This document shows, piece by piece, positions 5,189 to 13,706 of a stretch of DNA of 64,000 bases. The translations under genes and the position numbers were made by a program. This DNA comes from Patescibacteria group bacterium (GTDB lineage: Bacteria > Patescibacteriota > Minisyncoccia > HO2-45-28), in assembly GCA_038064075.1 (NCBI GenBank), contig JBBTTU010000004.1, positions 647-64,646 on the forward strand. The letters run 5' to 3'. Below the pieces are notes generated by a model. It worked only from the letters and a program-made list of their open reading frames with translations, did no database searches and was not told the DNA's origin. Every line of letters begins with the position of its first letter. Position 1 is the stretch's first letter.

Positions 5189-5809
5189 ATGGAGCAAATA
5201 ACTGTTAAAAATCAATTAGCAAATAAGATAACAATGAAACGGATTTGCGAGATTTTGCGTTCGGGAGGGGTTGTCGCGGCTCCGACCGATACCGTTTACG
5301 GATTTTTGGCTGACGCCGGAAATGAAAAAGCAATTAATAAAGTTTTTGAAATTAAGGGCCGTCCGAGAGAAAAAGCGCTTCCGGTTTTTATTTCTTCTTT
5401 TGATATGCTTTTTAAGATTGCCAACGCCGCAGACTCGCGAGTCTTGAAATTTTTAAAAGAAAATTGGCCGGGTAAAATCACTGCCGTTCTGCCGCTTCGC
5501 GCCGGCGCCGGCGGCTACATTTGTTCTTTGAAAGAAACGATCGCTGTCCGGATGCCGGACAGCGCTTTGATTTTGAAGATTATCAGGAGTTTCGGCGGTC
5601 CGGTTACCGGCACTTCGGCAAATATTTCCGGCCGGCCGGAACAAACTAAAATTAAAAATCTGATAAAAGAATTTGAAAGAGCGCCAACCCGGCCGGATTT
5701 GGTTTTGAACGCCGGCGATTTGCCGAGAAGCAGGCCGTCAACCGTAATTGATTTGACTGGCTGGCCGCCTAAAATCTTGCGCCAAGGCGCGGTTAATATC
5801 TCATATTAA
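5189..5809 (+). CDS. tsaC: L-threonylcarbamoyladenylate synthase (TsaC/Sua5/YrdC family).
   Basis: 'VVAAPTDTVYGFLADAGNEKAINKVFEIKGRPREKALPVFISSFDML' and 'GPVTGTSANISGRP' are signature YrdC/Sua5 motifs. Confidence 0.85.
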   Translation: MEQITVKNQLANKITMKRICEILRSGGVVAAPTDTVYGFLADAGNEKAINKVFEIKGRPREKALPVFISSFDMLFKIANAADSRVLKFLKENWPGKITAVLPLRAGAGGYICSLKETIAVRMPDSALILKIIRSFGGPVTGTSANISGRPEQTKIKNLIKEFERAPTRPDLVLNAGDLPRSRPSTVIDLTGWPPKILRQGAVNISY

Positions 5810-5887: not shown

Positions 5888-6916
5888 ATGGGCAATAATT
5901 TTAATAATTTTGAAGAAGTTTCCAAAAGTTTATTAAAAGAATTTTCAGGGCGCGCTAAAGACGTTATTGAACGTCGTTTTGGCATTGGTTCAAAGTCAAA
6001 AAGACAAACCTTGGAAGCAATCGGCCAGTTTTACAAAATTACCCGCGAGCGAGTCCGCCAGATTGAAGACGCGGCTTTAAACAAGCTCCGTTTGAGCCAA
6101 TCTTTTGATTCATTAACTTCTCCTTTGTTTGAAATTTTCCAGAAAGAGCTTGAAAAAAGAGGCGGAGTTTGCCGCGAAGACCATTTTATTGCCGGGTTTG
6201 CGCATGGCGAACGGGATAAAAATTATGCCCTCTTTTTCCTTTTTTTAGGCAGTCCGTTTTCGCGATTAAGCGCCGACGGGTCATTTTACAGCCGATGGAC
6301 GATTAATAAAGAGAATGCTTCCAAAGTTGAAAGAGCCGTCGCCAGTTTTGCTGAAAGTTTGGGACAAGAGCCGTTAACTGAAAACGAAATACTTGACCGT
6401 TTCAACCGGCATGTTGCCGCGAGTCTCAACCATACATTAGAAAAATCAGCTCTGCTTTCGTGGCTCGGCATTTCCAAAGAGATTACCGTTAATCCTCTGG
6501 GTGAATGGGGACTCAATTCTTCGCTTCTGGTCCGTCCGCGCGGCATGCGGGATTTTGCCTATCTTGTTTTGAAAAAGCACGGATCGCCCCTCCATTTTCG
6601 CGAGGTTGCCAAAAAAATTGAAGATCTGGCCGGCCGGCGTTCCCATGTCCAGACGGTCCATAACGAACTTATCAAAGACGATCGCTTTATTCTGGTCGGC
6701 CGCGGACTTTACGCTCTTTCAGGCTGGGGCTATCAGCCCGGAACCATAAAAGACATAATCACCAATATTTTGAAAAATCACGGTCCGCTTTCAAAAGTCG
6801 AGCTGGTTCAAAAAGCTCTTCAGGAAAGGCATGTTAAAGAAAACACGGTGCTGATCAATCTTCAAAATAAAACTCATTTTAAGCGTCTTGACGACGGCCT
6901 CTATCATTTGGCCTGA
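5888..6916 (+). CDS. DNA-binding regulatory protein with a sigma-70 region-4 HTH N-terminal domain and a HARE-HTH-like C-terminal domain.
   Basis: 'AKDVIERRFGIGSKSKRQTLEAIGQFYKITRERVRQIEDAALNKLR' matches RpoD region 4.2. C-terminal 'VLKKHGSPLHFREVAKKIEDL' and 'ILKNHGPLSKVELVQKAL' resemble the HARE-HTH of the RNAP delta subunit. Confidence 0.55.
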   Translation: MGNNFNNFEEVSKSLLKEFSGRAKDVIERRFGIGSKSKRQTLEAIGQFYKITRERVRQIEDAALNKLRLSQSFDSLTSPLFEIFQKELEKRGGVCREDHFIAGFAHGERDKNYALFFLFLGSPFSRLSADGSFYSRWTINKENASKVERAVASFAESLGQEPLTENEILDRFNRHVAASLNHTLEKSALLSWLGISKEITVNPLGEWGLNSSLLVRPRGMRDFAYLVLKKHGSPLHFREVAKKIEDLAGRRSHVQTVHNELIKDDRFILVGRGLYALSGWGYQPGTIKDIITNILKNHGPLSKVELVQKALQERHVKENTVLINLQNKTHFKRLDDGLYHLA

Positions 6917-7002
6917 GGGAGTTGCCTGAAATTTTCAAGTTTCAGCCATAATTTTATTTATTGCTATTCCAAAATTTTGTGTAATTTGGCATAATATAAG
7001 CA

Positions 7003-8340
7003 ATGCCGCAATTTAAGGGTTTTTCTTTAACCGTTTTATGGAATTTTATTGCGCCGGCGCTTAATTTTATCGCCGATCTTTGGTGGTTGTGGCTTTTCAT
7101 CATTTCGGCGATACTGGCAAAAAATCTTTGGCAACATTTGCGGATTTCGCGTTTTAAAAACGACAACCGCTGGGTTCTTTTGGAAATTTTAATCCCGCGC
7201 GAAATCCGGAAATCGCCAAAGGCGATGGAGCAGATTTTAAATCAAATTTACAGCTTGAGAAATTCTCCCGAAAACTTCGTTGAAAAATATTTTGAGGGCG
7301 AAGTGACTCTTTGGTGGAGTCTGGAAGTCGCCAGTTTCGGCGGCGAGGTTCATTTTTTTATCCGGACGCCGGAAAAGTATAAAAATATCATAGAATCCAA
7401 CATTTATGCCAATTACAAAGACGCCGAAGTAGTTGAAGTTCAGGATTATGTCCTGCGTCTGCCGGAACGAACAACCGATTTATACAAAATGGGAATGGAT
7501 CTTTTCGGTTTGGAGCTGACTCTGGGGCGCGAGAGCGCCTATCCCATCAGAACCTATCCCCAGTTTGAAGCCATGGAAGAAGAAAAGGCTCTTGATCCGA
7601 TATCGGGCCTTATTGAAGTTTTAAGCAAACTGAAAAAAGAAGAACAGGTTTGGCTTCAGATTTTGATCAAGCCGGCCGATCCTTTGTGGAAAGAAAAGGG
7701 TTATAAATTAGTCAAAAAATTGCAGGAAAAAACCTTTTCCAAAGTTAGTATTTCAGAAGGAAAGTCGCTGGCTATCGGCCGGACGACTCCCGGTGAGGAA
7801 GACATCATAAAAAATATTGAATATAAACTGGCAAAGGCGGCTTTTGAAACTGTTATCCGTTATGTTTATTTCGCTCCGCGGTCTATTTTTAACAAACAAT
7901 TGCCTTACAGAGGAGTTCGGGGCTGTTTTGCCCAGTATTCGGCTCAGAACATGAATTATTTTGTTCCGAACATTGCGGTCCGAACCATGGTTTGGTGGGT
8001 TAAATTTCCGTTTTTCTTTTCCAAAAAAAGAGAAGAAGGGAGGAAGCAGCGCGTCTATCAGAATTATCGCTTGCGGCGAATGCCGGAAGAAATCGCGATC
8101 GGCAAAGTTTTAAACTCCCAGTTTTTTTATTTTGACAACAAGTCAAAGCCGGCAATATTTTCAAGCGAAGAGATCGCGACATTTTATCATTTGCCTTCTT
8201 TCCTGATTTTAACCGCGCCTTTCATCAAGCGGGTTGAAGCCAAACGGATGGGTCCGCCGGCCGGATTGCCTATTTTCGGCGAAGAGGAAGAAATTCCCGG
8301 GATTAAAATGCCGGAGGAACGCAAATCAGCCAAAAAATGA
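7003..8340 (+). CDS. Hypothetical membrane-anchored protein with two N-terminal TM helices and a ~370-aa soluble domain. It is the first gene of the T4CP-like ATPase module.
   Basis: N-terminal hydrophobic helices ('FSLTVLWNFIAPALNFIADLWWLWLFIISAILA'). I recognise no family. A possible extended -10 (TGGCATAAT, 6987-6995) lies upstream. The stop overlaps a downstream ATG in an ATGA arrangement. Confidence 0.5.
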   Translation: MPQFKGFSLTVLWNFIAPALNFIADLWWLWLFIISAILAKNLWQHLRISRFKNDNRWVLLEILIPREIRKSPKAMEQILNQIYSLRNSPENFVEKYFEGEVTLWWSLEVASFGGEVHFFIRTPEKYKNIIESNIYANYKDAEVVEVQDYVLRLPERTTDLYKMGMDLFGLELTLGRESAYPIRTYPQFEAMEEEKALDPISGLIEVLSKLKKEEQVWLQILIKPADPLWKEKGYKLVKKLQEKTFSKVSISEGKSLAIGRTTPGEEDIIKNIEYKLAKAAFETVIRYVYFAPRSIFNKQLPYRGVRGCFAQYSAQNMNYFVPNIAVRTMVWWVKFPFFFSKKREEGRKQRVYQNYRLRRMPEEIAIGKVLNSQFFYFDNKSKPAIFSSEEIATFYHLPSFLILTAPFIKRVEAKRMGPPAGLPIFGEEEEIPGIKMPEERKSAKK

Positions 8341-8359
8341 ATCAAGCCGCAAGTTCCAA

Positions 8360-8485
8360 GTGCCAAAATTGCCGGCAAAACTTCACGAAAACAATTCCTG
8401 CCCCAATGAATTTGAAACAACCTATTCACCGGACCGCAAAGAAATTGTTTATTGCGAACAGTGTTATCAGAGCGAGATTTTGTGA
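8360..8485 (+). CDS. Possible small zinc-ribbon ORF, or a frameshifted C-terminal extension of the upstream membrane protein.
   Basis: The +1 frame relative to the 7003 gene encodes 'CPNEFETTYSPDRKEIVYCEQC', homologous to 'CWICKKTASVPFKPDGQRPVYCSEC' at the C-terminus of the 10621 ATPase (shared PD..(R/K)x(I/P)VYCx(E/Q)C). The start codon is uncertain (GTG at 8360). The alternative frame also encodes a 58-aa CxxC ORF starting at 8337. Confidence 0.25.
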   Translation: MPKLPAKLHENNSCPNEFETTYSPDRKEIVYCEQCYQSEIL

Positions 8486-8531
8486 GAAACTGTGTTGGTT
8501 TAATTTATTTTAAATTGTTATTCTTAAAATA

Positions 8532-9098
8532 ATGCCCATAAATTTTAACGCGATTGGAAGCATGCTCGGGCCTTTTGGTTTTTTGGCAGATATTGGCTTC
8601 TGGCAAAATTTTTATGTAGTTTTGCGCCAGATTTTGATTGCGGGCGCCGGGGCGCTTTTTATTCTTTCAGTTTGGCTTTTGATTAAAATCTGGTCGCTCA
8701 AACTCCGTTTTTATATTTATGAAGGTTACAGGGCTTATCGCACTCCCGGCAGAGAAACCACTTTTGAAGAAGAACAAAGGCTTGCCAGCCGCAGGAAATG
8801 GGACGCTATCATCAAAAAAGTTGAATCGCGGGGAGCGGCCGGTTTCGGCATGGCTGTTATTGAAGCTGATATTTTAACCGAAGAAATAATGGGCCGGATG
8901 GGTTTTATCGGCAAAAATCTGGCGGAACGCCTGCGTTCGCTTGCGCCGGGCGAACTGGAAAGTGCCAATGACCTTTGGTCCGCCCACAAATTAAGAAATA
9001 AAATAGCCCACGAGCAGGAATTTCAGCCGTCCAAGGAAGAAACGGTTGAGGCCTTGGCGGCTTACAAAAAAGCCTTGCAAGATTTGGGCGCGATATAA
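8532..9098 (+). CDS. Small membrane protein with a C-terminal alpha-helical domain carrying a HEPN-like Rx4H motif.
   Basis: Two N-terminal hydrophobic helices. The C-terminal 'SAHKLRNKIAHEQEF' matches the HEPN/HepT(DUF86) Rx4HxY motif, with Q in place of Y. Confidence 0.45.
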   Translation: MPINFNAIGSMLGPFGFLADIGFWQNFYVVLRQILIAGAGALFILSVWLLIKIWSLKLRFYIYEGYRAYRTPGRETTFEEEQRLASRRKWDAIIKKVESRGAAGFGMAVIEADILTEEIMGRMGFIGKNLAERLRSLAPGELESANDLWSAHKLRNKIAHEQEFQPSKEETVEALAAYKKALQDLGAI

Positions 9099-9117
9099 AG
9101 ACATTAGAAAACTTAAC

Positions 9118-10587
9118 ATGCTAAGAGAAGGAAAAATTCAAATAATCAAATATGCTCCGCCTCCGCCGGAATTGCCGGTCTATAAATATGTTGATCCGCG
9201 CGAAACCGTCTTTTTCGGCCGGACCAATTATGTCGCCGGACTTGAAGAGAAAAGATTTATTTTCGGCATTAAAAGAAAAGACCGCCGGCGCCATATGTAT
9301 GTCGTCGGCAAAAGCGGCGTCGGAAAAAGCAAACTATTGGAAATGATGATCCGTCAGGATATCCGCTACGGCCACGGGCTTTGCTTGATTGATCCTCACG
9401 GCGACGTGATTGAGGAGATTTTGAAGTTCATTCCCGAAGAGCGCGCTCGCGATACGGTTATCATTGATCCTTCGGATATTGACTGGCCGGTTTCTTTTAA
9501 TCCTTTGCAAAATATCAATCCCGAACTGAAGCACCAAGTCGCCCAAGGTTTGATTGAAGTGATGGAAAAGCAGTTCGGCGCGAACTGGACGCCTCGTTTG
9601 GAACATGTTTTTCGTTTTACGGTGCTGGCGCTTCTGGATTTTCCGATGGCCACCATGCGCGGAATGATTTCAATGCTGACTGACCGGAGATACCGTCAGA
9701 AAGTCGTGGAGTTCATCGGCGATGAGATGGTCAAACGTTTCTGGGCGATAGAATTTGCCGACTGGTCGGAAAAATTTGACACCGAGGCCATTATTCCTTT
9801 GGTCAACAAGCTCGGCCAGTTTTTATCCAATCCTTATTTGCGCCATATTTTCGGCCAACGCGAAAATAAAATTGATTTGGAACATATAATGAACAGCCGT
9901 AAAATACTCCTGATCAACCTTTCCAAAGGGAAACTGGGCGAAGAAAATTCAAGCTTTTTCGGTTCAATATTCATCACCAAGATCAAGCAGGCCGGAATGG
10001 CCCGGGCGGCCGTGGCCGAGAGCGAACGCAAAGATTTTTATCTTTATGTTGATGAATTTCATAATTTGGTCACAACCACTTTTGAAAATTTATTTTCCGA
10101 AGCCAGAAAGTACGGCCTTAATATGATTGTGGCCCACCAGTATATGGGCCAGCTTTTGCCGCGGGTGCATGATACGGTTTTGGGCAATGTCGGCACCATT
10201 GTCGTTTTCAGGGTCGGAGGAGACGACGCCGCCAAACTGGAGAGCGAAATGACGCCGGTTTTTAAAGCCAAAGACATGATTAATCTCGGCATGCAGGAAT
10301 TCTACGTAAAAATGACCATTGACGGCGACACTTCCGATCCTTTCTCGGCTGAAACGCTCAAAGTCTTGCCAACGGCGCACCAATCGTTTAAAGAAGAAAT
10401 TATTGATTTTTGCCGCAAAAATTACGCCGCTCAAGCCCAAGAAGTGAAACGAAAAATTACTGAAGAGGAAACCGAACTTTTGGGCCTTGCTCCCGAAGAA
10501 GAAAAAAAAGAAGAAGCGTCTTCGGCGGTTTCTCAAGCGCCCGGCGAAAAATCGGAAAATTCTCAAAACTCCGAACCTCTTGTCTGA
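9118..10587 (+). CDS. Soluble VirD4/TraG/TrwB-type (type IV coupling-protein-like, FtsK/HerA superfamily) P-loop ATPase. NCBI-style name: type IV secretion system DNA-binding domain protein.
   Basis: Walker A 'HMYVVGKSGVGKSKLL', 'GLCLIDPHGDV', Walker B 'DFYLYVDEFHNL' and Q-motif 'IVAHQYMGQL' occur in canonical T4CP order. There is no TM anchor. The C-terminus is acidic. The start is chosen at the internal ATG at 9118 (MLREGK) to avoid overlapping the upstream gene. Confidence 0.7.
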   Translation: MLREGKIQIIKYAPPPPELPVYKYVDPRETVFFGRTNYVAGLEEKRFIFGIKRKDRRRHMYVVGKSGVGKSKLLEMMIRQDIRYGHGLCLIDPHGDVIEEILKFIPEERARDTVIIDPSDIDWPVSFNPLQNINPELKHQVAQGLIEVMEKQFGANWTPRLEHVFRFTVLALLDFPMATMRGMISMLTDRRYRQKVVEFIGDEMVKRFWAIEFADWSEKFDTEAIIPLVNKLGQFLSNPYLRHIFGQRENKIDLEHIMNSRKILLINLSKGKLGEENSSFFGSIFITKIKQAGMARAAVAESERKDFYLYVDEFHNLVTTTFENLFSEARKYGLNMIVAHQYMGQLLPRVHDTVLGNVGTIVVFRVGGDDAAKLESEMTPVFKAKDMINLGMQEFYVKMTIDGDTSDPFSAETLKVLPTAHQSFKEEIIDFCRKNYAAQAQEVKRKITEEETELLGLAPEEEKKEEASSAVSQAPGEKSENSQNSEPLV

Positions 10588-10620
10588 AATAAAATTTGCA
10601 GACATAATTTAAATAATCCC

Positions 10621-12564
10621 ATGGCCATTCAAAAAGAAAGAGTTTATTTTGCCAGAACAAATTTTAGAGGTCAGAATAAAATTTTCGGCATTAAATTGCC
10701 GGATCGCCGGCAGCATATGTATGTTGTCGGGAAAACCGGCACCGGCAAAACCAACCTGATCAAAAATATAGCCATTCAGGATATAAACTCCGGCCGGGGC
10801 CTCTGCGTTGTTGATCCTCACGGCGAGCTAGTTGAAGAACTTTTGGAAAAAATTCCGAAAGAACGCTCCAAAGACGTGATTTATTTCAATCCGGCCGACT
10901 CGGAACATCCTCTGGGTTTCAACGTCTTGGAAGTTCCCGATAAAAAATACAAGCATTTGATTGCGCAGGGCCTGATCGGAATTTTTACCAAAATCTGGGC
11001 CAATGTCTGGTCGGCCCGGATGGAGTATATTTTAAATAACTGCATTTTGGCCTTGATTGAAACGCCGGGCACCACGCTCTTGGGCATTCAGCGCATTTTG
11101 ACCGACAAAGATTACCGCCAGCGGATTTTAGCCAATGTAACCGACCCGGTCGTGCGCGCTTTTTGGATGAATGAATATGAAGTCTGGCAGGATCGCTTCC
11201 GCAACGAAGCCATTGTTCCGATTCAAAATAAAGTCGGCCAGTTCGTCGCGACATCTTTGATCCGAAACATTGTCGGCCAGGCCAAATCAAGCTTTGAAGT
11301 TTTTGAGTTGATGAACGAGGGCAAAATTCTTCTGGTCAATATTTCCAAAGGCCGGATTGGCGAGGAAAATTCAATGCTTTTGGGAGCCATGCTTATCACT
11401 AAAATTCAGCTGGCGGCCATGGAACGGGTCCGCATCCCCGAAAATGAAAGGCGCGATTTTTATCTTTATGTTGACGAGTTCCAGAATTTCGCCACCGAAT
11501 CGTTTGCTTCCATTCTTTCCGAAGCCAGAAAATACCGGCTTAATCTGATTATTTCGCATCAATACACCGGCCAGCTGATTAGCCAGACGACAACGACGAT
11601 CCGCGACGCCGTTTTCGGCAATGTCGGCACGATGATTTTTTTCAGAGTCGGAGCGACCGACGCCGAGTTTCTGGAAAAAGAAATCACGCCCGAATTCGTC
11701 ATAGACGACCTCGTCAATCTGCCCAATTACAATATTTATCTCAAATTAATGGTTGACGGCATATCAACCCGGCCTTTTTCGGCCGTTACCATACCGCCTT
11801 TGGCCACGACCGCCGATATGGCCGATCCGAAAATTATCGTTGATAATTCCCGAAAGCAATATGCCCGATCGGCAAACAAGGTTGAAGGAGATATCAAGCG
11901 CTGGAGTTCTTCTTTGCCGGGAACGACTGAAGCCGAAGAAGAATTTTTCACCGAAGGCGGATCCGCCTATGGCGGAAAAGTTAAAACCGGCGACAAATTT
12001 GAAAGTCCGTGCTGGATTTGCAAAAAAACCGCGTCAGTTCCTTTCAAGCCCGACGGCCAAAGGCCGGTCTATTGCTCGGAGTGTTTGAAAAAGATTGAAG
12101 CCGGCCAACTGCGGCCTTTGCGTCCGCTGCCGACGGCCGGAAAAGAGCGCGAAGAATTCGGCGGAGAACTCGGTGAATTGGGCATTGAGTTTAATTTGCC
12201 TCAAAATAAGGTAAAGACATTCTCAAAGCCGGGCTTCAAAGCTCCGCATCCGGAATTTTCGCCGAAAGCCCGGCCCGCGCCCGGAAAAATTATGCCGAAT
12301 ATCAGAGAGGGCGAATTGGTGGTCAAGGATGTTAAGCCAAAACGCGCGCTTTCTTTGCAAGATTTGAAGCCGCGGGCAGAAAAATCAAAACCAAAAGAAT
12401 CTAATTTGGATGAATTGCGCCGGGTTCTGAAAGAATCGCTTGCCAAAGAAGAAAAACCGATGGCCGAAACTCAAAAAAATCAGAATGCGGCGCCGTCTTC
12501 ACAAAAGGAGCCGTCTTCCAAATCAGGCGTGCTTAAACCCGGCGAGTCAATAAAATTTGAATAA
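10621..12564 (+). CDS. Paralogous soluble VirD4/TraG-type P-loop ATPase with a C-terminal CxxC...CxxC zinc ribbon and a long K/P/E-rich disordered tail.
   Basis: 'HMYVVGKTGTGKTNLI', 'GLCVVDPHGELV', 'DFYLYVDEFQNF', 'IISHQYTGQLI'. The core is collinear with the 9118 protein. Zinc ribbon 'CWICKKTASVPFKPDGQRPVYCSEC'. The tail is rich in K, P and E. Confidence 0.7.
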   Translation: MAIQKERVYFARTNFRGQNKIFGIKLPDRRQHMYVVGKTGTGKTNLIKNIAIQDINSGRGLCVVDPHGELVEELLEKIPKERSKDVIYFNPADSEHPLGFNVLEVPDKKYKHLIAQGLIGIFTKIWANVWSARMEYILNNCILALIETPGTTLLGIQRILTDKDYRQRILANVTDPVVRAFWMNEYEVWQDRFRNEAIVPIQNKVGQFVATSLIRNIVGQAKSSFEVFELMNEGKILLVNISKGRIGEENSMLLGAMLITKIQLAAMERVRIPENERRDFYLYVDEFQNFATESFASILSEARKYRLNLIISHQYTGQLISQTTTTIRDAVFGNVGTMIFFRVGATDAEFLEKEITPEFVIDDLVNLPNYNIYLKLMVDGISTRPFSAVTIPPLATTADMADPKIIVDNSRKQYARSANKVEGDIKRWSSSLPGTTEAEEEFFTEGGSAYGGKVKTGDKFESPCWICKKTASVPFKPDGQRPVYCSECLKKIEAGQLRPLRPLPTAGKEREEFGGELGELGIEFNLPQNKVKTFSKPGFKAPHPEFSPKARPAPGKIMPNIREGELVVKDVKPKRALSLQDLKPRAEKSKPKESNLDELRRVLKESLAKEEKPMAETQKNQNAAPSSQKEPSSKSGVLKPGESIKFE

Positions 12565-13706
12565 AGCTCAAATGTTTTTTGGAGTTGTTTTTCTTTTGAA
12601 AATTCTTTAAGCACTTTTTGGCGCAAGTTTTGAGCAAGTATCCGGCCTAACTCCGGATCTTTTTTTAATCTTAAAACTGCTTCAGTCAGTTTTTGGGGAT
12701 CGGCCGGCGGTATTAAAAGTCCGGTTTTTCCGTCTTCTATGATTTCAGGGATTCCGCCGACAGAGCTGGCAATAACCGGGATTCCGGCCAGACCCGCTTC
12801 AAGCACCGCGTAGGGCAGTCCTTCTTTCAGCGACGGAAACACGAATACGTCAAAAGCTTTGAGATAAGCCGCCGCCGGAAAAAGATCTCTTACTAAAATC
12901 ACGTGTCGGCCGGTTTTTTCATTTTCAATTTGTCGGCGAGTTTTTTGCCAGCCGCTGCCCCAAGCCGCGATTACGGTTTTTATTTTTTCGTCTTTTTTAG
13001 CCAAGACGCCGGCGGCCGGTACCAGATATTCGTAGCCTTTATTTTTGACAAATTCGCCGACGGTGCCGACAATAAAATCATCGGTTTCAAACCGCGCATT
13101 CGGCATTTTTTTCCGGATTTCGTTTTTAGCAAGAAACAAGATTTCGTTTTCGGAGATTCCGTTATGGATGGTCAATAATTTTTCAGGCCGGGCCAGTCCG
13201 GTTTGGACGGCAATTTGGCGGTCAAAGTTTGAAACGCAGATGACTTGATCGTAAAACCATAAAGTTATTTTGGAAAGAATCCGGATGAAGAAAATTTGCC
13301 AGCGCGGCCTATCTTCCAGAAAACTCCAGCCGTGGACCGTAAATATTGTCCGCAGTTTTTTTCGGGAAAGCATTTTATAAATAAACGCGGCCGGGCCGGC
13401 AATGCCGGCGGCTTGGGGGCTTGAAGAATGAAGAATATCGGGACGGAAAGAAAAAAGAATTTTAAGCGTTTTTAAAAAAACCGCAAATGCCCCCAAAGGC
13501 CCCATTTCGCGCTTAAGTCCGCCAAGCGAAATAAAAGGTATTGACGCTTCTTGCAGGCGGCCGGCCAGAGGTCCGCGGCCGCCACCGGCCACCGCGGCGT
13601 CGTATCCCTTCTTTTGGGCGCAAGCGGCGAGGTCATAGACATGTTTTCCGGCTCCTCCCCAGACCGACTTGGTGATAAGGTATAAAATTTTAGCGCGATT
13701 GACCAT
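12480..13706 (-). CDS. Glycosyltransferase family 4 (GT-B, Glycos_transf_1).
   Basis: 'FVFPSLKEGLPYAVLEAGLAGIPVIASSVGGIPEIIEDGKTGLL' is the GT4 EX7E region. Its 3' end overlaps the convergent 10621 gene by 85 nt. Confidence 0.75.
   Translation of the reverse strand: MVNRAKILYLITKSVWGGAGKHVYDLAACAQKKGYDAAVAGGGRGPLAGRLQEASIPFISLGGLKREMGPLGAFAVFLKTLKILFSFRPDILHSSSPQAAGIAGPAAFIYKMLSRKKLRTIFTVHGWSFLEDRPRWQIFFIRILSKITLWFYDQVICVSNFDRQIAVQTGLARPEKLLTIHNGISENEILFLAKNEIRKKMPNARFETDDFIVGTVGEFVKNKGYEYLVPAAGVLAKKDEKIKTVIAAWGSGWQKTRRQIENEKTGRHVILVRDLFPAAAYLKAFDVFVFPSLKEGLPYAVLEAGLAGIPVIASSVGGIPEIIEDGKTGLLIPPADPQKLTEAVLRLKKDPELGRILAQNLRQKVLKEFSKEKQLQKTFELYSNFIDSPGLSTPDLEDGSFCEDGAAF

Follow-up and report, generated by a model that had tools for sequence, protein, structure and literature searches.

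What is a small membrane protein carrying an RNase-like motif doing directly upstream of two ATPases that resemble type IV coupling proteins (T4CPs)? This question is raised by gene X, which lies in a 64-kb stretch of Patescibacteria group bacterium DNA (contig JBBTTU010000004.1; the whole stretch is called the window hereafter). An initial annotation had noted an Rx4H motif in the C-terminal helical domain of X and read it as a HEPN domain closest to HepT/DUF86, with an allusion to toxin–antitoxin (TA), abortive-infection, and CRISPR-ancillary systems. The analysis described here led us, by analogy with other HEPN proteins, to give an even chance to another role, in which X is a membrane-tethered housekeeping HEPN factor that cleaves or binds RNA, and not a toxin.

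The open reading frame (ORF) and its motif were as claimed. Both the ORF list and direct reading of the sequence gave 8532-9098 on the + strand, with an ATG start and 188 amino acids (aa), and the peptide SAHKLRNKIAHEQEF is present in the product, R155 being encoded by codon 8994-8996 and H160, which completes R155-x4-H160, by codon 9009-9011. A database protein, P0001, is 100% identical to X and is annotated from an internal Met; the longer start was favored because the N-terminus is conserved in 189-aa homologues. In the protein, a single transmembrane (TM) helix is followed by a basic linker and then by a helical domain of 110 aa, to which layout the following features correspond.

8532-9098, + strand: gene X, membrane-tethered HEPN-fold protein, stop codon included (ORF list, sequence)
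8532-8627, + strand: N-terminal segment, residues 1-32, with short amphipathic helices 5-11 and 13-19 (AlphaFold)
8628-8693, + strand: single TM helix, residues 33-54, QILIAGAGALFILSVWLLIKIW (hydropathy)
8694-8762, + strand: basic juxtamembrane linker, residues 55-77, SLKLRFYIYEGYRAYRTPGRETT (positive-inside rule; predicted local distance difference test, pLDDT, 62-72)
8763-9095, + strand: HEPN-fold domain, residues 78-188, with helices 78-100, 102-122, 130-135, 145-160, and 168-184 (AlphaFold)
8862-8870, + strand: E111-A112-D113 in helix 2, the most widely retained motif of the family
8985-9011, + strand: candidate active-site stretch H152-K153-L-R155-N156-K-I-A-H160, the R-N-x3-H form of Rx4-6H (codons read)

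Taken by itself, the bare Rx4H motif of X is not significant and counts as weak evidence; it was found in 16 of the 52 gene-like ORFs in the window (expectation, 0.16 per 188 aa), and R[NDH]x3H was found in three of them (0.027 per 188 aa). The motif is raised above chance because it is conserved and because it is set in a HEPN fold. Two protein sets were used for evaluating the conservation, both of which are biased to consensus-like members (top-scoring hits and a pattern-based genome scan): in an alignment of 21 homologues reaching down to 26% identity, D113, G127, W149, A151, H152, R155, N156, and H160 were invariant and A112 was conserved in at least 90%, and H[K]xRNxxxH was present in 177/177 proteins, comprising the word-search homologues and the 150 best-scoring representatives. 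A polar residue (N, D, or H) right after the Arg is typical of catalytically active HEPN RNases; the residue after R155 is N156, which is invariant in the sampled homologues.

In the AlphaFold model of X, which was built with the 21 homologues, a long helix at residues 21-70 leads through a linker of lower confidence into a compact helical domain at residues 78-184 (mean pLDDT 91.8). This domain is all-helical, consists of ~110 aa, and contains the four-helix up-and-down core that defines HEPN, on which R155-x4-H160 is located on helix 145-160 as the Rx4-6H conserved on the C-terminal core helix. The model thus favors the HEPN assignment made by the initial annotation. Apart from the HepT structures compared at the end of this text, its fold matches also include TTHA0636, other HepT toxins, YutE, KNTase, sacsin, Roquin, Csx1, GlnE, and AbiA, with Foldseek E-values of at least 0.035 throughout.

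Window X matched no family at E ≤ 1 in either Pfam or NCBIfam, gave nothing usable against PADLOC and PDB sequences, and matched no defense-system model. A Pfam scan was hence made of 39 diverse domain sequences of the family, in which these families were matched by more than two members.

HEPN_Swt1 (PF18731): 12 of 39 members, best E 4.6e-5
Hypoth_Ymh (PF09509): 11 of 39 members, best E 0.013
HEPN_RiboL-PSP (PF18735): 7 of 39 members, best E 0.0026
HEPN_Cthe2314: 4 of 39 members, best E 0.008
CTD11: 3 of 39 members, best E 0.003

Matches by single members were to Csm6-HEPN, pEK499_p136, and, weakly, the RNase L/Ire1 KEN model (Ribonuc_2-5A). The X protein of Giovannonibacteria matched DUF4145 (PF13643) with an E-value of 0.001 over 78 of the 88 profile positions, as well as Csx1/CARF-HEPN models in PADLOC, and the K-x-R-N-x3-H of the family profile fell in register with the catalytic KSRNQTSH of HepT (E 0.48). 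The Pfam families matched by several members almost all belong to the HEPN clan, and this recurrence, though obtained through many homologues and not through window X itself, supports the HEPN assignment. We conclude that the domain of X is a HEPN fold with a canonical R-N-x3-H motif, and that the Swt1/DUF4145/Ymh group, rather than HepT, is its nearest neighbor in sequence. The closeness to HepT/DUF86 that had been suggested therefore holds for the fold, but not for the sequence, in which the DUF86 match and the Tyr are absent.

The TM anchor was located by hydropathy, whose maximum (2.28; Kyte-Doolittle, 19-aa window) is reached from residue 33 (residues 33-51). A TM-grade N-terminal segment was found in 163 of 177 family proteins, so that the fusion to TM helices, taken as unusual by the initial annotation, is a property of the whole family and has a precedent in Csx28. 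The mean number of K+R per 15 aa was 0.72 before the TM segment and 3.89 after it in 242 family proteins, and the count after it exceeded that before it in 231 of them. The positive-inside rule is well established, and this excess therefore places the HEPN domain in the cytoplasm. X is thus predicted to be a single-pass membrane protein with the N-terminus out and the C-terminus in, whose residues 1-32 would lie outside the cytoplasm. A segment of the latter type occurs only in long-form members, including window X, which carry ~30 additional N-terminal residues; the short forms (~135-150 aa, mostly of Saccharibacteria) start almost at the TM helix, giving a median TM start at residue 33 for the long and residue 4 for the short forms.

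A word-indexed homology search gave 30 relatives, of which the named ones are hypothetical proteins of Candidatus Niyogibacteria or Saccharibacteria. With a profile covering the last 107 residues as the query against 1.84 billion representative proteins, 3,259 representatives (clusters) were matched at E ≤ 1e-3 and 2,577 at E ≤ 1e-10, and the 150 best matches are all small proteins (81-255 aa) with the domain at the C-terminus. A scan for WxAHKLRN[KR], using one genome per species, detected 541 loci, and all of the 80 that are listed belong to Patescibacteria, namely Saccharibacteria, Paceibacteria lineages, and Peregrinibacteria. Among identified loci, the family is restricted to genomes of the Candidate Phyla Radiation (CPR). 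Each locus holds one copy, and the family tree broadly tracks taxonomy. In neighbor-joining trees (109 positions), the window clade is monophyletic and placed inside the gatA-linked sequences described below, and the copies of Giovannonibacteria and Ryanbacteria fall apart from it; judging from these trees, the T4CP-linked copies may be either paralogues generated by duplication or relocated orthologues. One gatA-linked member is named 'DUF4145 domain-containing' in UniRef, none of the curated models names the family, and no description of it was found in the literature under HEPN plus GatCAB, HEPN plus Patescibacteria or CPR names, or DUF8128.

The distant homologues of X are encoded between gatA and gatB, in the usual order gatC-gatA-X-gatB. 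We classified 89 related loci by their flanking genes, a collection biased to query-like and mostly Saccharibacteria sequences, in which gatA is located directly upstream of X in 73, with gatB also directly downstream in 51 of the 73. In 48 of 75 loci, the stop codon of gatA overlaps the start of X, the usual overlap being 1 or 4 nt; at the other end of the gene, gatB starts no more than 30 nt from the stop codon of X in 45 of 58 loci. Paceibacteria-type genomes contain a block ligA-gatC-gatA-X with gatB elsewhere; ligA-gatC-gatA-X is also carried by one nominal Niyogibacteria genome. A GatA homology search aimed at the Niyogibacteria gatCAB gave saturated, near-identical scores, and the 64-kb window contains no gat genes. 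Since X usually resides inside the gatCAB operon, it appears housekeeping-like and not toxin-like, which argues against the TA, abortive-infection, and CRISPR roles alluded to at the outset. The placement of X in a T4CP-like module, pointed out by the initial annotation as unusual, is one of two conserved contexts, of which gatCAB is the commoner in the sampled loci.

Genetic data are available for a gene at this gatCAB position in Southlakia epibionticum. SEML1_0535 is a 420-bp 'hypothetical protein' gene (Wang et al. 2023, PMC10633639, Table S1) that shares 4 nt with gatA (SEML1_0536) and 1 nt with gatB (SEML1_0534) and is listed as a core, Patescibacteria-enriched family (PMC10633639). Transposon sequencing (Tn-seq) graded it GD/GD/ES (growth-defect, growth-defect, essential), with normalized reads falling from 126.6 to 5.9 and 2.8 (PMC10633639). 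The protein has no Pfam match, was named 'DUF4145 domain-containing protein' by ProtNLM (0.98), and was assigned by DPAM to a 1wty-type 'nucleotidyltransferase substrate binding' fold at residues 26-135 (PMC10633639, Table S2), which is a HEPN-like fold. The main text of that paper mentions neither SEML1_0535 nor HEPN (PMC10633639). Its length of 139 aa fits the X proteins of Saccharibacteria (135-141 aa).

Because the samples used for the motif were consensus-biased, X was also sampled through GatA, that is, from gatA loci chosen blind to X. Degenerate members were found by this sampling, and the motif is hence not invariant family-wide. In three Paceibacteria loci, X was present right after gatA in two, and the His was lost in both (HKIRNRIAQ and HKIRDRVAT). 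In 80 metagenomic gatA loci, in which CPR and other bacteria are mixed, X was located downstream in ten, comprising five intact and two degenerate members (ADQIYQKLL and QKICSDIIH), two truncated by contig ends, and one that was too divergent. The four degenerate members are as follows.

L094, 5433-5972: RNRIAQ, EAD kept
L096, 5433-5987: RDRVAT, EAD kept
L098, 2741-3322: YQKLLR, EAD kept
L099, 3139-3795: CSDIIH with the second His kept, EAA instead of EAD

In three of the four, the TM segment and the fold are kept, as is the helix-1/2 'W...AxIEAD' region. W149 is lost along with the R/H residues, with H152 also missing in three, and the gatA-linked operon position is retained. The motif is intact in window X and in every T4CP-linked member examined. 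The family therefore holds both enzyme-like and pseudo-enzyme-like members.

The second context of X is the module in the window, where a sigma-70 region 4/HARE-HTH gene, a DUF8128 gene, X, and two T4CP-like ATPase genes follow one another in an order common to the clade of X.

5888-6916, + strand: sigma-70 region 4 plus HARE-HTH protein (Pfam Sigma70_r4 2e-11, HARE-HTH 2.5e-10)
7003-8340, + strand: DUF8128 membrane protein, 445 aa (PF26449 on homologues; N-terminal hydropathy 1.88)
9118-10587, + strand: T4CP-like P-loop ATPase 1 of TrwB/TraD/VirD4 type (TrwB_AAD_bind 6.6e-11)
10621-12564, + strand: T4CP-like ATPase 2 (TrwB_AAD_bind 1.8e-15; zf_Tbcl_2 9.2e-11)

The start of ATPase 1 is located 19 nt past the stop codon of X, with an alternative TTG start at 9046, and the C-terminus of ATPase 2 contains a CxxC-x17-CxxC treble-clef zinc finger. 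Both proteins match the P-loop/TrwB domain only, far below equivalog cut-offs. Canonical coupling proteins carry an N-terminal TM domain; no TM-grade segment was detected in ATPase 1 (maximum hydropathy 1.39) or ATPase 2 (1.21), whereas DUF8128 and X have one each. Neither virB4 nor a relaxase gene is present among the genes adjacent to the ATPases. The initial annotation had seen no MntA-type partner of X, and indeed a nucleotidyltransferase domain is absent from both flanking genes and from ten small or mid-size ORFs of the window. A DUF8128-anchored search found the same order in Giovannonibacteria and Ryanbacteria, in which the unannotated gene between DUF8128 and the ATPase is X with an intact motif, so that the module recurs in Niyogi-, Giovannoni-, and Ryanbacteria. 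A promoter and terminator scan of 6800-12800 gave sites no more numerous than in shuffled sequence.

Several further observations were made on this module. The slot between DUF8128 and the ATPase is occupied at one locus (L093, 8289-11875) by two unannotated proteins of 597 and 605 aa, which are unrelated to X. The sigma-70 region 4/HARE-HTH gene, whose HARE-HTH domain is RNA polymerase delta-like, precedes DUF8128 in L009, L091, L092, and L093, and upstream of it lies ftsW in two lineages and secDF in two others; the entire arrangement resembles a conserved CPR module. Residues 72-138 of DUF8128 weakly matched Abi_2 (Pfam E 0.017) and AbiD (PADLOC E 0.008), a HEPN family, and DUF8128 was considered as a second HEPN protein; this was set aside, the match being sub-threshold and its 'SLRNSPEN' being without His. 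Both ATPases match PADLOC mad8 (E 4e-15 and 1e-13) and several HerA models because of the shared P-loop fold, and weak NCBIfam matches to archaeal DNA-import proteins were obtained for CedD (both ATPases) and CedB (ATPase 1 only). Between DUF8128 and X, at 8337-8485, a small CxxC-x17-CxxC zinc-ribbon gene is split over frames +1 and +0, with 'MNQAASSKCQNCRQNF...' in one frame, '...EFETTYSPDRKEIVYCEQCYQSEIL*' in the other, and ~29 extra nt at the junction. An intact version, 'CSKCGKKFETVYSPDDPKIVYCERC', is present in L014 at ~1842, and the motif resembles the C-terminal finger of ATPase 2; the split copy is either a pseudogene or an assembly error. The 3' end of the ATPase 2 gene on the + strand overlaps a convergent 408-aa ORF (- strand, 12480-13706) by 85 nt (12480-12564), and a terminator-like hairpin occurs at 12640-12658 on the + strand. 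Two genes upstream of the module, at 5189-5809, lies a Sua5/YciO/YrdC (TsaC-type) tRNA threonylcarbamoyl-adenylate synthase gene (Pfam E 4.4e-49), a further tRNA-related neighbor whose presence there is probably coincidental.

For the housekeeping HEPN factor that we favor, the following mechanism may be postulated. Like HEPN proteins with an intact R-N-x3-H, window X would form HEPN-HEPN pairs on the inner side of the membrane, and by the same analogy the paired protein would bind RNA and probably cleave it in a metal-independent manner to give 2',3'-cyclic phosphate ends. It may act as a constitutive RNA-processing or quality-control factor, for which tRNA or the mRNA of the gat operon itself are the first candidate substrates because of the gatCAB link. 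In the lineage of the window, X and DUF8128 may also hold the T4CP-like ATPases at the membrane, which is proposed because the ATPases are TM-less and X lies directly upstream of them. A more specific version, which we consider unlikely, is that X is an essential, Patescibacteria-specific membrane-tethered HEPN RNase that works physically with GatCAB and was redeployed with DUF8128 in some Paceibacteria. X might then fix the transamidosome to the membrane, or act on tRNA or gat mRNA by cleavage or proofreading, and with DUF8128 it could form a membrane platform for orphan T4CP-like translocases in some Paceibacteria.

Several points weigh against the housekeeping RNA factor. Window X reaches no curated Pfam or NCBIfam threshold, and the HEPN profile matches of its relatives are all sub-threshold, e.g., 19.5 versus 23.1 bits. 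SEML1_0535 was taken as a putative orthologue of X from its position, size, and fold, not from sequence comparison, and its Tn-seq phenotype may be a polar effect on the essential gatB downstream. One DUF8128/T4CP locus lacks X, and a shared gene neighborhood is by itself no proof that X functions with GatCAB or with the ATPases. Finally, R and/or H was lost in four of the nine complete X genes of the blind gatA sampling, and a function common to the whole family therefore cannot depend on HEPN catalysis. This loss, with most features otherwise kept, also speaks for the main alternative, possible if doubtful, in which X is a non-catalytic membrane adaptor whose HEPN fold serves only as a protein- or nucleotide-binding module tethering a soluble partner. 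In most CPR this partner would be GatCAB or the transamidosome, and in the lineage of the window it would be the TM-less T4CP-like ATPases, with R/N/H as a ligand site or a relic. Such an adaptor is also consistent with the stop/start overlaps with gatA and gatB, which suggest matched, coupled expression, and with the two ATPases being devoid of the N-terminal TM domain of canonical coupling proteins. It accounts poorly for the H-K-x-R-N-x3-H face, which is strict in the window clade and in the 177/177 proteins as expected of an active site, and for the absence of X from some DUF8128/T4CP loci as well as many gatA loci, among them L097, which has the closest GatA match, and L095.

The other explanations were given far less weight. 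That an ordinary helical bundle carries the motif by chance and is not a HEPN domain is hardly credible: Rx4H is frequent in the window genes (16 of 52), no curated model is reached at threshold, Foldseek E-values are all at or above 0.035, and generic four-helix bundles are among the structure matches, but the families matched by several members almost all belong to one clan, R, N, and H are conserved to 26% identity, and the independent DPAM pipeline gave the Southlakia protein the same fold. Many HEPN families act as effectors in TA, abortive-infection, or CRISPR systems, and X might accordingly be an RNase unleashed on infection, with the ATPases as part of a defense island; the mad8 and HerA matches of both ATPases and the weak AbiD/Abi_2 matches of DUF8128 (E 0.008 and 0.017) could be cited for this. 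Such an effector is nevertheless very improbable, as X has no antitoxin-like neighbor among the genes scanned, lacks the Tyr of RX4HXY, and matches neither DUF86 nor PADLOC models, and as the gene lies within an essential translation operon, with translational coupling, in most of the 89 query-biased loci. It also probably belongs to a core, Patescibacteria-enriched family in which the Southlakia insertions are depleted and not tolerated, whereas a toxin gene would be expected to tolerate them. An oligomeric membrane pore like that of Csx28, a ring of protomers packed face-to-back that would permeabilize or gate the membrane, with the HEPN motif serving for protomer contacts and not for catalysis, is suggested by the TM helix and the cytoplasmic four-helix HEPN-like domain within ~140-190 aa, as in Csx28. 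This seems quite improbable, however, because a cas13b/CRISPR context is lacking, a constitutive pore in an essential operon would be harmful, and R-N-x3-H is better conserved in X than the divergent motif of Csx28.

The housekeeping RNA factor matters because HEPN domains are usually read as toxin or defense nucleases, and the X family is instead conserved CPR-wide in thousands of clusters and is probably needed for growth of the only CPR bacterium that is genetically tractable. If X is an active RNase, it is a candidate for missing or unusual RNA processing in reduced genomes and a lineage-specific essential target, and, if it works with GatCAB, it would be a lineage-defining housekeeping RNase without counterpart in other bacteria. 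If it is a non-catalytic anchor, it would still show clearly how a HEPN fold can be recruited as a membrane adaptor, and natural pseudo-enzymes are available for comparison. The context of DUF8128 and TM-less T4CPs further offers a specific starting point for studying the orphan VirD4-like ATPases, of which CPR genomes hold thousands. A recent survey counted 5,713 VirD4 homologues in 2,918 CPR genomes, 148 of them near virB4, and reported that the Southlakia VirD4 copy is non-essential; exaptation for other functions has been suggested (bioRxiv 10.1101/2025.01.22.634366). The window ATPases belong to this orphan VirD4-like T4CP class of Patescibacteria. The survey mentions neither X, DUF8128, nor HEPN, and the order sigma-70 region 4/HARE-HTH, DUF8128, X, T4CP is not described in it.

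Among known systems, HepT/DUF86 of the MntA-HepT type VII TA system (Shewanella SO_3166, PDB 5yep; 8xdj) is like X in fold only. No DUF86 (PF01934) match was obtained for the 21 or 39 members scanned, the Tyr of RX4HXY that MntA AMPylates is absent from X (H160-E-Q162) and its +2 position is variable in the family, and X is a TM-anchored protein of housekeeping context rather than half of a TA pair, flanked by DUF8128 and a T4CP-like ATPase here and by gatA/gatB elsewhere, with no MntA. The Swt1, DUF4145, Ymh, and RiboL-PSP families share the R-N-x3-H form of X, but are soluble and often fused to restriction, abortive-infection, or PIN modules, whereas X is TM-anchored and stands alone. Csx28 of type VI-B2 CRISPR-Cas13b forms an octameric pore with its HEPN residues at a non-canonical interface (bioRxiv 10.1101/2021.11.02.466367). 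Apart from Csx28, no described prokaryotic protein was found that has the architecture of X, an N-terminal TM helix followed by a cytoplasmic four-helix HEPN-like domain of similar size. Csx28 is linked to Cas13b and uses a divergent motif for the face-to-back ring contacts of a defense pore, in contrast to the canonical motif and core operons of X, and no cas genes are present among the neighbors of window X or in the 89 classified loci. The KEN domain of Ire1 and RNase L was reportedly assigned to the HEPN superfamily by Anantharaman et al. in 2013. Ire1/RNase L are like X in having a TM-anchored, cytoplasmic HEPN-type domain, which becomes an RNase on dimerization in the case of KEN; they are eukaryotic, multidomain (sensor, kinase, and KEN), and stress-activated, whereas X shows no evidence of a sensor domain or regulation. 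What was already known is hence the HEPN kind, the TM-HEPN architecture with its one precedent in Csx28, and the automatic tagging of two members as DUF4145-like; what is new is the recognition of a TM-HEPN family that is CPR-specific and very large, is tightly coupled to gatCAB, has a second context with DUF8128 and orphan T4CP-like ATPases, and includes both intact and degenerate active sites.

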